Program-made: the position numbers and the translations under genes | Notes under the pieces: model-generated | The model's database searches: none | Seen by the model: the letters and a program-made list of their open reading frames with translations, nothing else | Told to the model about the DNA's origin: nothing | Shown here: piece after piece, positions 7,396-11,479 of the stretch | How the letters are laid out: each line of letters opens with the position of its first letter | Numbering within the stretch: position 1 is the stretch's first letter | Assembly (NCBI GenBank): GCA_000004695.1 | Contig: CM000151.3 | Coordinates: 3,296,001 to 3,360,000 of the forward strand | Source: Dictyostelium discoideum | Lineage: Eukaryota | Direction of reading: 5' to 3' | Length of the DNA stretch: 64,000 nucleotides

Positions 7396-8331
7396 ATGAA
7401 CGAAATAGAAGTTGATAATTTATCTCATACCAATAAAAATGTTGCAACTGATAATATTAATAATAACAATAATGATATAGAATTAGAAACAATACCAAAC
7501 GATAGTAATAATAGTAATAATAATAATAATAATAATAATAATAATAATAATAATAATAATAATAATAATAATAATAATAATAATAGTAATAGTAACGATA
7601 TAGAATTAGAAACAGAACCTAATAATAGTAATAATAATAATAATAATAATAATAATAATAATAATAATAATAATAATAATAATAATAATAATAATAATAA
7701 TAATAATAATAATAATAATAAAAATGAAAATAATAATAAAATTAAAAATGAAAAAATAAATATATTATTATCAATTAAGTTATATTTTATTCAATATTTT
7801 AAGAAATGGAAAGGTGGAGAGAAATCACCAGTTAGAGCAGATCTTGAAGAGATTGGATGGTCATGGTTATCTTCATTTATTGGTATATTGGTATTAGCAT
7901 TATTACATTATAGGGTAACTGTTGAAAAAGAGACTATATTTTTACTAGGTTCATTTGCAGCATCTGCTGTATTAATTTTTGGTGCTCCAAAATCACCATT
8001 AGCTCAACCAAGAAATTTAGTACTTGGACATATAGTATCAGCAACTGTTGGTTCAATCATTAGAGTTGCATTGGTTTATACAAATGCTCAAACTGAAGTA
8101 GCATGTGCTTTAGCGGTCAGTTTAGCAATTGTCGGAATGCATTTCACAAAATCAATACATCCACCTGGTGGTGCCACTGCCTTGATTTGTGTTATGAGTG
8201 CCGAGCAACGTTGGAGAGGTTTTTATTATATATTCGTACCTGTGGCATCAGGTTCTTTAACAATGTTATTAACTGCATTAATTGTTAATAATTTTGCAAG
8301 AAAAAGAAAGTATCCTGTATTTTGGTGGTAA
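7396..8331 (+). CDS. HPP-family integral membrane protein with a poly-Asn N-terminal extension.
   Basis: The sequence ...FTKSIHPPGGATALICVMS... carries the HPP signature, and multiple TM helices are present (LSSFIGILVLALL, GSFAASAVLIFGA, LAVSLAIVGMHF). The N-terminus has two copies of DIELETxPN + (N)n. Confidence 0.8.
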   Translation: MNEIEVDNLSHTNKNVATDNINNNNNDIELETIPNDSNNSNNNNNNNNNNNNNNNNNNNNNNNSNSNDIELETEPNNSNNNNNNNNNNNNNNNNNNNNNNNNNNNNNNKNENNNKIKNEKINILLSIKLYFIQYFKKWKGGEKSPVRADLEEIGWSWLSSFIGILVLALLHYRVTVEKETIFLLGSFAASAVLIFGAPKSPLAQPRNLVLGHIVSATVGSIIRVALVYTNAQTEVACALAVSLAIVGMHFTKSIHPPGGATALICVMSAEQRWRGFYYIFVPVASGSLTMLLTALIVNNFARKRKYPVFWW

Positions 8332-8336
8332 TTAAA

Positions 8337-8450
8337 TTAATAATAATAATAATAATAAATAATAATAATAATAAATAATAATAATAATAAATAATAATAA
8401 TAAATAATAATAATAGTTAGTAATAATAAAATAAAAAAATTTAAATTATA
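8337..8450. repeat. (AAT)n microsatellite immediately 3' of the HPP gene. The same arrangement recurs at 10780-10900, 11270-11340 and 13770-13870.
   Basis: Direct trinucleotide runs start within a few nt of the stop codons. Confidence 0.9.
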
Positions 8451-8774
8451 TGTTATACACCCCCACAATTTGTAATTATCCTTATTTTTTAATTTATTTT
8501 TTATTTTATCTGATTGGTTCAAAATTTAAATAAAGATAATAATAATAAAAAAAAATTAAAAATAAATTAATTAATATTGTATATCGCAGTTAATAGTGGT
8601 TATAAATCTACACCAGATTTAATAATTGTTTTCCACCTTTTTTTTTTTTACTTTTATTATTTATTTTATTTTATTATTTAGTTATTATTTTTTTTAAACT
8701 TTTTTTATATAAAACTATTATTTGTTTTATTTTAATATCATTTTATTTAATAATACATATATTACCTTATAAAA

Positions 8775-10779
8775 ATGTATAAGTTTAATTATGAAAATGA
8801 TATTGATTTTGCAAATAACCAACCAATAGAATTTTGGGATGAAGTTGCAAAGGATTTAGTTCATTGGTAAGTTTTTTTTATTTTTCTAAATTGTCTTGAC
8901 AAAAAACTAATAATTTAAAAATAAAAGGGATAAAATGTATGAAAAAGTTTATAGTGATGATGAAATATATCCAGATTGGTTTAAAGGTGGTGAATTAAAT
9001 ACATGTTATAATGTTTTAGATATTCATATTAAAAATCCAGAAACAAGAGATCAAGATGCATTAATTTATGAATGTCCATATTTAAAGAAAACTGTAAAAT
9101 TAACTTATTATCAATTATATGAAAAAGTATGTGAATTTTCAAGAGTACTTTTAAATTTAAATATATCAAAAAATGATAATGTTTTAATTTATATGTCAAA
9201 TACATTAGAACCATTAATTGCAATGTTATCATGTGCTCGTATTGGTGCAACTCATTGTGTGTTATTCGATGGTTATTCAGTTAAAAGTTTAATAGATAGA
9301 ATTGAAACAATTACACCAAAATTAATAATTACAACAAATTATGGTATTTTTAATGATGAAATTATTAATTTCATACCAAATTTAAAAGAATCAATTGAAT
9401 TATCAACTTTTAAACCAAGTAATGTAATTACTTTATTTAGAAATGATATTACAAGCGAATCAGATTTAAAGAAAGTAAATGATATACCAACGATACCAAA
9501 TACATTAAGTTGGTATGATGAAATTAAAAAATTCAAAGAAAATAATCAATTACCATTTTATGAATATGTACCAGTAGAATCAAGTCATCCATTATATATA
9601 CTATATACAAGTGGTACAACTGGTAATTCTAAAGGGGCTGTTAGAAGTAATGGTCCACATTTAGTTGGTATTAAATATCAAACATTGATACAAAAGGGTA
9701 AAACAAAAGTAGTATTTTATCATACAAGTGTTGGGTGGATATCAATTCATAATGCTTTTAATGGTTTATTATCACTTGGATATACATTGGTTATGTTTGA
9801 AGGTGGGCTTACTAAAACAAAACATATGGAAGATGATATTTGGGAAGTTATTGAAAGAAATAAAGTAACTTGTGCATCCATAATGGCTAAAGCAATTAGA
9901 TACTTAATTAAAGTTGATCCTGAATGTAAAAATTTACATTCAAAGTATGATTTATCAAATTTAAAAGAAATAATAGTTGGTGGAGAACCAATTGAAGAAT
10001 CAATTCCAAATTATATTCAAGAGAAATTAAAAGTAAAGTCAATTCGTGTATACGGTCAAACTGAAACTGGAGCATGTTATTTTTATTGTTATGATTATAA
10101 AAATTTAAAAATTCCTATTAACACAAGTGGCTTTCCATTTTCATCTTTAAAAGCAATGATTTTTTCAGATGATGGCAAAGAATTAGGTGTTAATGAAATT
10201 GGAGAGCTTGTATTTAAATTACCATTACCACCAAGTTTTGCAACTACATTTTATAAAAATGATGAAAAGTTTAAACAATTATTTACAAAATTCCCAGGTT
10301 ACTATAACCCTGGTGATTTAGGATTTAAAGATGAAAATAATTGTTATGGTGTTGTTTCAAGATCAGATGATCAAATTAAAATCAGTGGTAATAAAGTTCA
10401 ATTAAATAAAATTGAAACATCAATTTTAAAACATCCATTAGTTTTAGAATGTTGTTCAATAGGTATTTATAATCCAGATTGTTATAATGTACCAATAGCT
10501 TTTTTAGTTTTAAAACAACAAGAAGATCAATCAATTCAACAAATTGATTTAAATAAATTACAATCTGAAATTAATATAATCATTTCAAAAGATATAGAAA
10601 ATTTTGCAATTTTAAGAAAAACTTTAATAGTTACACAAATACCGAAAACCAAAGCTGGTAAAATTCAAAGACAAATCATTTCTAAATATTTAAATGATAT
10701 AAATTATGAATTACCAGATAATGTTTGTGATGTTGAAATCTTTTATAAAATCAAGGATTTATATAATAATGTTAAATAG
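8775..10779 (+). CDS. PrpE/ACSS3-like acyl-CoA synthetase paralog A1. Exon 1 is 8775-8866 and exon 2 is 8928-10779.
   Basis: Exon 1 reads MYKFNYENDIDFANNQPIEFWDEVAKDLVHW, joined through gtaagt...aaaag to GDKMYEKVYSDDEIYPDWF... The AMP-binding motifs are present: YTSGTTGNSKG, YGQTETG, GDLGFKDENNCYGVVSRSDDQIKISG and LPKTKAGKIQR. The match to E. coli PrpE includes LPLPP versus GPLPPG and the LPKTRSGK region. Confidence 0.85.
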
Positions 10780-10899
10780 TAATAATAATAATAATAATAA
10801 TAATAATAATAATAATAATAATAATAATAATAATAATAATAGTAATAATAATAATAATAATAAAAATAAAATAATAATAATAATAATAAAATAATAATA

Positions 10900-11290
10900 A
10901 TAGGTTCATTTGCAGCATCTACTGTATTAATTTTTGGAGCACCAAATCACCATTAGCTCAACCAAGAAATTTAGTATTTCGACATATAGGTTCAATCATT
11001 AGAGTGCATTTGGTTTATACAAATGCTCAAACTGAAGTAGCACTCTTTAGCGGTCAGTTTAGCAATTGTCGGGATGCATTTCACAAAATCAATACATCCA
11101 CCCGGTGGTGCCACTGCCTTAATTTGTGTTATGAGTGCTGAACAATGCTGAAGAGGTTTTTATTATATATCCTTACCTGTGGCATCGGGTTCTTTAGGAA
11201 TGTTACTAACCTCATTAATTGTTAATAATTTTACAAGAAAGAGAAAGTATCTGTATTTTGGTGGTAATTAAATTAATAATAATAATAATA
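10900..11290 (+). pseudogene. Decayed duplicate of the 3' third of the HPP-family gene (copy of 7930-8340).
   Basis: It is collinear with GSFAASAVLIFGAPKSPLAQPRNLV...IHPPGGATALICVMS...FARKRKYPVFWW but carries indels and frameshifts, for example 'caccattagctcaacc' missing one nt, and a TGA in 'caatgctgaagagg'. The same (AAT)n and 3' flank follow it. Confidence 0.8.
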
Positions 11291-11479
11291 ATAAATAATA
11301 ATAATAATAATAAATAATAATAATAATAATAATAATAAAAATAAAAATAGCTAGTAATAATAAAATAAAAATATTTAAATTATATCTTATACACCCCAAT
11401 TTGTAATTCATCTTTATTTTTTTATTTTATCTTATTGGTTCAAAATTTAAATAAAGATAAGATACATAATAAAATTTTT

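Follow-up and report, generated by a model that had tools for sequence, protein, structure and literature searches.

The stretch analysed here, referred to as the window, comprises 64,000 nucleotides of Dictyostelium discoideum chromosome 2 (GenBank assembly GCA_000004695.1, contig CM000151.3, positions 3,296,001 to 3,360,000 of the forward strand) from an AX4-type strain, with a G+C content of 16-30%. Its first 21 kb are occupied by an array of acetyl-CoA-synthetase-like genes, here named A0 to A4, whose products contain the Pfam domains ACAS_N (59 bits), AMP-binding (185 bits) and AMP-binding_C (50 bits), all above the curated thresholds. Within the array lies a gene for an HPP-family membrane protein, which matches Pfam PF04982 (TM_HPP) over residues 147-307 (E=2.6e-53; 180 bits against a cut-off of 27.2) and encodes poly-Asn in two pure tracts, (AAT)23 at 7516-7584 and (AAT)30 at 7630-7719. 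The first synthetase copy downstream of HPP, A1, is followed by a truncated HPP copy and by A2. The join between the tract of AAT repeats behind A1 and the truncated HPP copy is the subject of this report; it is the internal junction of an old, unprocessed, DNA-level segmental duplication arranged head to tail.

Orthologous contigs were reached via the HPP protein in D. cf. discoideum (L001), D. citrinum (L002) and two divergent lineages labelled D. discoideum (L004, GCA_054859385.1; L005, GCA_054859355.1). The features on which the argument depends are listed below; a slash marks a join, and psiHPP denotes the HPP relic.

7396-8331, plus strand: HPP-family membrane protein gene, an intact single open reading frame of 311 amino acids (stop codon 8329-8331)
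8332-8573, plus strand: HPP 3′ compound (AAT)n/(AAAT) microsatellite and flank (CACCCCCACAATTTGTAATT ... GATTGGTTCAAAATTTAAATAAAGATAA), the flank being conserved in L001, L004 and L005
8775-10779, plus strand: A1 synthetase (exon 1 8775-8866, intron 8867-8927, exon 2 8928-10779), 647 amino acids, intact
10780-10902, plus strand: A1 3′ (AAT)n, with interruptions; right end of unit 1
7948-10902, plus strand: duplication unit 1, about 2.96 kb, from self-BLAST and alignment
10901-10903, plus strand: join J1 of the window, ...AATAATA/GGTTCATTTGC, from (AAT)n to nucleotide 553 of the HPP coding sequence
10903-11270, plus strand: psiHPP, without promoter or start, a relic of the last 128 HPP codons (three-frame translation and four-taxon alignment)
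11271-11470, plus strand: HPP 3′ microsatellite and flank of unit 2, the non-repeat part 94.7% identical to unit 1
11485-11577, plus strand: the first of two synthetase 5′ fragments, a 93-nt exon-2 relic (codons ~53-82)
11596-11631, minus strand: inverted copy of a flank motif, with an exact 13-mer, TATTGGTTCAAAA, and a 36-nt arm 78% complementary to 11410-11445
11637-11761, plus strand: remnant of the A2 promoter, with deletions relative to unit 1 and L001
11762-13775, plus strand: A2 synthetase, a pseudogene in the window strain (exon 1 11762-11853, intron, exon 2 from 11929)
13776-13871, plus strand: (AAT)32 on the 3′ side of A2, where unit 2 ends on the right; the ancestral downstream flank, 'AAATGAGTATC', comes next
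10903-13871, plus strand: duplication unit 2, head-to-tail with unit 1
about 14750-16764: A3 synthetase
about 17865-19894: A4 synthetase

The initial annotation described 10900-11470 as a decayed, collinear copy of 7930-8560 and proposed that the duplicated unit had carried the tail of HPP along with the synthetase gene. Both proposals are borne out. In self-BLAST, 7943-8573 and 10898-11493 match at 86.9% identity (633 columns, 39 gap positions, E=0). A second match, of 8682-10869 to 11667-13870, has 91.4% identity and runs from the promoter through both exons and the intron to the 3′ (AAT)n; the remaining synthetase pairs in the array are 75-79% identical. Base-level alignment confirms the copy. 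Each unit contains the last 384 nt of HPP, its 3′ microsatellite and flank, a promoter, a two-exon synthetase gene and the 3′ (AAT)n of that gene. The copied flank of about 200 nt includes 'TATACACCCC(C)A(C)AATTTGTAAT'. The HPP tail, the same microsatellite and the shared flank are all present as described, although the HPP portion amounts to nucleotides 553-936, or 41% of the coding sequence, rather than its 3′ third; the small synthetase fragment expected between this copy and A2 is the 93-nt relic at 11485-11577. Collinearity thus extends beyond the coding similarity of the synthetase genes, through flank, promoter and intron, which identifies a single tandem unit of about 2.96 kb.

Assembling AT-rich repeats is generally difficult, and this is the one consideration in favour of regarding the duplication as an assembly artefact; a processed, retro-copied insertion would be another explanation of the copy. 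We give these practically no credence. A second, independent D. discoideum assembly (L003) is 100% identical across 7300-14100, A2 lesions included, so the duplication is not a defect of one assembly, and L004 and L005 hold homologous structures. The divergence of 9-13% between the units precludes collapse or false expansion, and retroposition is excluded because the copy retains the intron, the promoter and flanking non-coding DNA.

In the AX4-type strain unit 2 is dead, psiHPP and A2 both being unprocessed pseudogenes. Stops interrupt the HPP relic in all frames, and its five indels include ones of 1, 15, 2 and 1 nt; in the four-taxon alignment it has 23 private substitutions against 1 in functional HPP, and it has lesions in common with the relic of L005. 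A2 is interrupted by an in-frame TAG (13085-13087), which is accompanied by a 1-nt deletion; it also has a +3 insertion near 13525 and has lost 2 nt near 13765. Private substitutions are 2.3-fold more numerous in A2 than in A1 (85 versus 37), and those of A2 are distributed over the codon positions as 27:23:35 (p=0.27 against a uniform distribution; p=0.28 against the functional copies). The A2 orthologues of L004 (647 amino acids) and L005 (648 amino acids) are intact, and the gene that is disabled in AX4 thus appears to be a live gene in sister lineages. These observations account for the HPP-like fragment, the stray piece of synthetase exon and the disabled paralogue in the AX4 chromosome 2 annotation.

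The exact positions of the junctions relative to the (AAT)n runs were mapped, and the earlier proposal that the breakpoints lie at such runs holds for one end of the unit. The right end of unit 1 falls inside the (AAT)n tract 3′ of the synthetase gene. The left end, by contrast, is in unique HPP coding sequence: the parental site is 'TTTTTACTA/GGTTCATTTGC', with the breakpoint at 7946-7948, a site where D. discoideum, D. cf. discoideum and D. citrinum all lack (AAT)n. Microhomology at J1 is limited to 'TA', matching HPP 7946-7947 (2 nt); with so little shared with the repeat, J1 as it stands is not the product of a homologous crossover between two (AAT)n tracts. The relic of L005 begins 182 nt further into HPP, at about nucleotide 735, again flush with (AAT)n and with 'AAT' as the microhomology. 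The relics have a common origin and yet J1 lies at different HPP positions, so one or both of these joins arose secondarily, by erosion from the repeat.

L004 and L005 are about 88-93% identical to the window across the locus and 97-98.6% in coding sequence, and they form a clade of their own. On this evidence they seem to be separate lineages or cryptic species, not strains of AX4-type D. discoideum.

Judged from the single-copy flanking genes, the lineages branch as (citrinum,(L001,(window,(L004,L005)))). L004 and L005 each hold A1 and A2 orthologues. In D. cf. discoideum both window units map onto one HPP-plus-synthetase segment, directly followed by the A3 orthologue, and no second match to the HPP tail occurs in that species or in D. 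citrinum. The absence of a second unit from these two species could mean that the duplication is recent, arising in the AX4 lineage after its split from D. cf. discoideum, with the similarity of A1 and A2 a matter of youth. Some neutral regions agree, the units being slightly closer to one another than to D. cf. discoideum (flank 94.7% versus 92.1%; exon 1 plus intron 89.6% versus 86.3%), and the quartet of HPP tails divides 4:2:1 in favour of grouping psiHPP with the window's own HPP. An origin after that split was the first reading of the D. cf. discoideum and D. citrinum loci together with the neutral regions; it was overturned by the L004 and L005 loci and the gene tree, and a recent origin now appears very improbable. 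Besides the orthologous A1 and A2 pairs of L004 and L005, the synthetase tree places the D. cf. discoideum gene inside the A1 clade, the A1 genes grouping at 98%, A1 plus the D. cf. discoideum gene at 97% and the A2 genes at 98%, with 100% in the central third. Every copy is about 85% identical to the D. citrinum outgroup, so this topology is not a rate artefact. The HPP relics agree with the tree. Where the four functional HPP genes have GCC GAG, psiHPP in both the window and L005 keeps the ancestral GCT GAA that is seen in D. citrinum as well, and the two relics also have in common a derived T against all four.

Taken together, the gene tree and the psiHPP relics show that the duplication predates the common ancestor of the four D. 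discoideum-complex lineages and that D. cf. discoideum lost the second unit. The synthetase gene of that species is A1-type to its 3′ end (67 A1-type versus 28 A2-type diagnostic sites) and is followed by the A2-type downstream flank 'ATGAGTATC', which puts the deletion crossover in a stretch of about 180 nt containing the 3′ AAT tract, now decayed to 'AATAAAAATAATAACAATAGTAAT'. The comparison with other dictyostelids that had been proposed at the outset therefore shows an old duplication whose second unit is retained in L004 and L005 and lost in D. cf. discoideum; it does not place the HPP side of J1 in an (AAT)n run. The HPP locus of D. dimigraforme (L006) has no synthetase array and so offers no deeper outgroup.

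The similarity within the window genome that had suggested youth is patchy, as expected of gene conversion. Differences between A1 and A2 are unevenly distributed per 100 columns (chi-square, p=9e-11), those between A1 and the D. cf. discoideum gene are not (p=0.18), and the runs test for A1 and A2 gives p=0.034. Identity between A1 and A2 of the window reaches 99.3% in some stretches and falls to 84-87% in others; in trees built by thirds the two group together in the 5′ third only, and the map of diagnostic sites places A1-type tracts inside A2. These patterns point firmly to an exchange of tracts between A1 and A2 by gene conversion, which explains why D. cf. discoideum, taken alone, dated the duplication too young. 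As a source that might have overwritten the divergent middle of A2, the genes A3 and A4 and the copies of D. cf. discoideum and D. citrinum were rejected, none ever being closer than A1 or the D. cf. discoideum gene.

Unlike D. discoideum, D. citrinum has one synthetase copy on each side of HPP (L002 6454-8482 and 11342-13388). These two copies are 98% identical, their promoters are far more diverged than their coding sequence, and the 3′ identity stops about 30 nt past the stop codon, at a long (AAT)n of the upstream copy. The distribution of identity suggests recent gene conversion in that species.

The spacers preserve traces of further events. The 93-nt exon-2 relic has no counterpart in unit 1 or in D. 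cf. discoideum, and it keeps the ancestral 'CCATTAAAAA', which is lost from A1, A2 and the D. cf. discoideum gene. Its best match is A2 of L004 (95.7%). The relic is too short for its donor to be assigned, with 7 mismatches each to A1 of the window and to the L001 c5 gene. The order in L005 is A1, a short psiHPP with the last 25 nt of a deleted synthetase gene, then a second type of join, J2, the flank and A2, so that relics of three units are kept there. The 93-nt relic of the window and the 25-nt synthetase 3′-end relic of L005 are probably the remains of a lost middle unit. The exact inverted 13-mer and 36-nt arm at 11596-11631, which could be read as a mark of template switching, border the exon-2 relic; however, they lie in the spacer, not at the unit junction, and the motif may be a conserved regulatory element.

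In J2, carried by L004 and by the right half of the L005 spacer, the 3′ AAT-type tract of the synthetase gene is fused to the 3′ AAT-type tract of HPP ('...AATAACAAT/AATAATAAAATAAAAACATTTAAAT'). A change from GATTGG to TATTGG is common to the unit-2 flank of the window and the flank adjoining J2 in L004 and L005. On the strength of this one flank substitution, J1 is slightly more likely than J2 to be the founding join, and J2 would be a later deletion from repeat to repeat.

Based on these observations, we favour an old tandem duplication that joined the middle of the HPP coding sequence to the 3′ (AAT)n of the synthetase gene, primed at its founding by microhomology or the microsatellite and followed by exchange, conversion, decay and loss; we put its probability at about 70%. 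A unit of about 2.96 kb would have been copied in tandem, running from nucleotide 553 of the HPP coding sequence through the microsatellite, flank, promoter and synthetase gene into the (AAT)n. The founding junction would have formed by non-homologous template switching or end joining with one end in (AAT)n, in the manner of microhomology/microsatellite-induced replication (MMIR). Later unequal exchange between units and AAT-seeded deletions would then have expanded, eroded and contracted the array. The junctions do show one mark of an MMIR-like event: a few nucleotides of microhomology, TA in the window and AAT in L005, with an (AAT)n tract on one side.

Several points weigh against this account. 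The J1 of the window may not be the founding breakpoint, in which case the founding mechanism is not directly readable from it. The three-unit history rests on the 93-nt and 25-nt relics and one flank substitution. The trees were built by neighbour joining from alignments in which conversion tracts are known to occur, and for A2 the codon positions give no significant sign of relaxed constraint (p=0.27 and p=0.28).

The principal alternative is homologous unequal crossing-over between the 3′ (AAT)n of the synthetase gene and either the HPP poly-Asn tract (7516-7719) or the HPP 3′ tract, with J1 eroded later. J2 in L004 and L005 is the very product that such a crossover would yield, psiHPP stands flush with (AAT)n at two different positions (window and L005), so erosion does occur, and the unit loss in D. 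cf. discoideum maps to a tract-containing interval. The shared TATTGG, however, favours J2 as a later deletion, the HPP breakpoint is free of (AAT)n in every species examined, and A3 and A4 have no (AAT)n. Both breakpoints fall in (AAT)n only at J2, which is probably a later event, and not at the window junction; nor is every unit bounded by the repeat, A3 and A4 being the exceptions. The segment 10858-10890 loosely resembles the sequence just past the HPP poly-Asn tract, a resemblance of low complexity. As a trace of that tract it was rejected: its 22-mer has 5 matches with at most one error and 72 with at most two in the window, and 'AATAAAAAT' is native to the synthetase 3′ untranslated region in L001, L004 and L005. 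In mutation-accumulation lines of D. discoideum, the breakpoints of copy-number variants (CNVs) overlap simple repeats less than chance would predict (PMC9849192), which likewise speaks against crossing-over between (AAT)n tracts. We regard a founding crossover of this kind as unlikely. A wider reading, in which the founding duplication would be such an exchange with an eroded junction, is that gene-end (AAT)n tracts are recurrent, position-specific rearrangement endpoints behind the gain, erosion and loss of units in the tandem gene arrays of Dictyostelium; this generalisation is doubtful at present. Were it true, the locus would contrast with the short-read mutation-accumulation data and would suggest that repeat-bounded events are under-detected.

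Within the preferred reading, one end of the founding duplication in a microsatellite and the other in unique coding sequence, the role of the (AAT)n tracts is more restricted than the initial annotation supposed. It had stated that every synthetase gene and HPP end at an (AAT)n run, which is correct for HPP, with (AAT)6 at 8339 just past its stop, for A1, with (AAT)20 at 10781 just past the stop at 10777-10779, and for A2. It does not extend to the older part of the array, as A3 (ending at 16764) has no AAT run and A4 (ending at 19894) has only (AAAT)n some 40 nt downstream. The further suggestion that the microsatellites were substrates of the crossing-over that built the array agrees neither with J1 nor with A3 and A4; what survives of it is the recurrence of the tracts as endpoints. 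J2, the two J1 positions and the loss interval of D. cf. discoideum all involve them, and these comparisons support the (AAT)n tracts as repeated endpoints of rearrangement here, for deletion and remodelling and not for the founding duplication. Generalisation of this role is countered by A3 and A4, by the deletion that left the fragment at 17341-17680, which lies away from (AAT)n, and by the mutation-accumulation data (PMC9849192); with A3 and A4 lacking a tract and that deletion off-repeat, there is no evidence at this locus that such tracts built the array.

In D. cf. discoideum the HPP-synthetase spacer carries (AAT)17 (L001 11010-11060), near the site of the window's exon-2 relic, where unit 1 of the window has only 'AATAAATTAAT'. 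This appears to be a lineage-specific microsatellite gain beside the rearrangement site. The HPP gene is itself variable in its N-terminal poly-Asn region (7516-7719), the protein having 311 amino acids in the window versus 265-285 in L001, L002, L004 and L005.

A C-rich motif, TATACACCCC.CAATTTGTAATT, with a similar form TATAAATC.ACACC.GATTT..TAATTG, occurs twice per HPP-synthetase spacer, at 8452-8478 and 8609-8637 in the first and at 11388-11410 and 11639-11667 in the second, and is conserved in L001, L004 and L005. From its conservation and position it may be a candidate regulatory element common to the HPP terminator region and the synthetase promoter.

Two further features of the array are:

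17341-17680: the second synthetase 5′ fragment
3-1946, minus strand: A0 synthetase, the end of which falls outside the window

The fragment at 17341-17680, upstream of A4, retains exon 1, which contains a stop, together with the intron and roughly 77 exon-2 codons. Its counterpart is full-length in D. cf. discoideum (L001 16962-19018) and split in two in L004 (18255-20255); about 1.95 kb is deleted from the window copy and replaced by about 25 nt of filler, with neither end at (AAT)n. A0 has a long (GGT AGT)n insertion (280-520, minus strand) that gives a Gly/Ser run within the AMP-binding domain, and its counterpart in D. cf. discoideum aligns in broken, low-identity pieces only. A1 is identical in protein sequence to DDB_G0273215/DDB_G0273709. 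That the protein has two AX4 gene identifiers would fit a position of the window within the large chromosome-2 duplication of the Ax3/Ax4 laboratory strains (PMC2643946). No mention of DDB_G0273215 or DDB_G0273709 was found in the literature searched by gene identifier.

The value of the locus is mostly local, in accounting for the annotation of this part of AX4 chromosome 2. More generally, with five related genomes it provides a well-resolved example of birth-and-death and conversion in a Dictyostelium array. Simple repeats make up more than 10% of the D. discoideum genome, and one locus cannot settle whether they promote structural change, yet it points to a genome-wide comparison in which this can be tested.

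In budding yeast, segmental duplications form between microsatellites, trinucleotide repeats or microhomologies (Payen et al. 2008, PMC2518615). The D. discoideum duplication resembles those attributed to MMIR in yeast (PMC2518615) in being a few-kb intrachromosomal event with a trinucleotide-repeat breakpoint, an in-gene microhomology and a truncated gene at the junction. The yeast process is marked by its Pol32 dependence and Rad52 independence, whereas the D. discoideum case is known from sequence alone; it is also ancient, was followed by conversion, decay and unit loss, and its present junction may be secondary. A second parallel is the Sp185/333 cluster of the purple sea urchin, which contains microsatellite-bounded tandem segmental duplications (Miller et al. 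2010, PMC3091723), and for which the authors proposed that microsatellites promote duplication, deletion and conversion (PMC3091723). Like that cluster, the array described here consists of tandem two-exon genes, with segments of gene plus flank that have edges at microsatellites. Unlike Sp185/333, where both segment edges are microsatellites, the window unit has one such edge only and the older members have no tract; moreover, the cleanest repeat-to-repeat join in the D. discoideum complex is in the sister lineages and more likely reflects a deletion. Birth-and-death evolution of tandem arrays combines unequal exchange, unprocessed pseudogenes and concerted evolution. Gain and loss of units, a relic of a neighbouring gene, a lineage-specific dead paralogue and mosaic conversion are all present at this locus and nothing essential differs, so the D. 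discoideum feature belongs to the ordinary birth-and-death evolution of tandem arrays.

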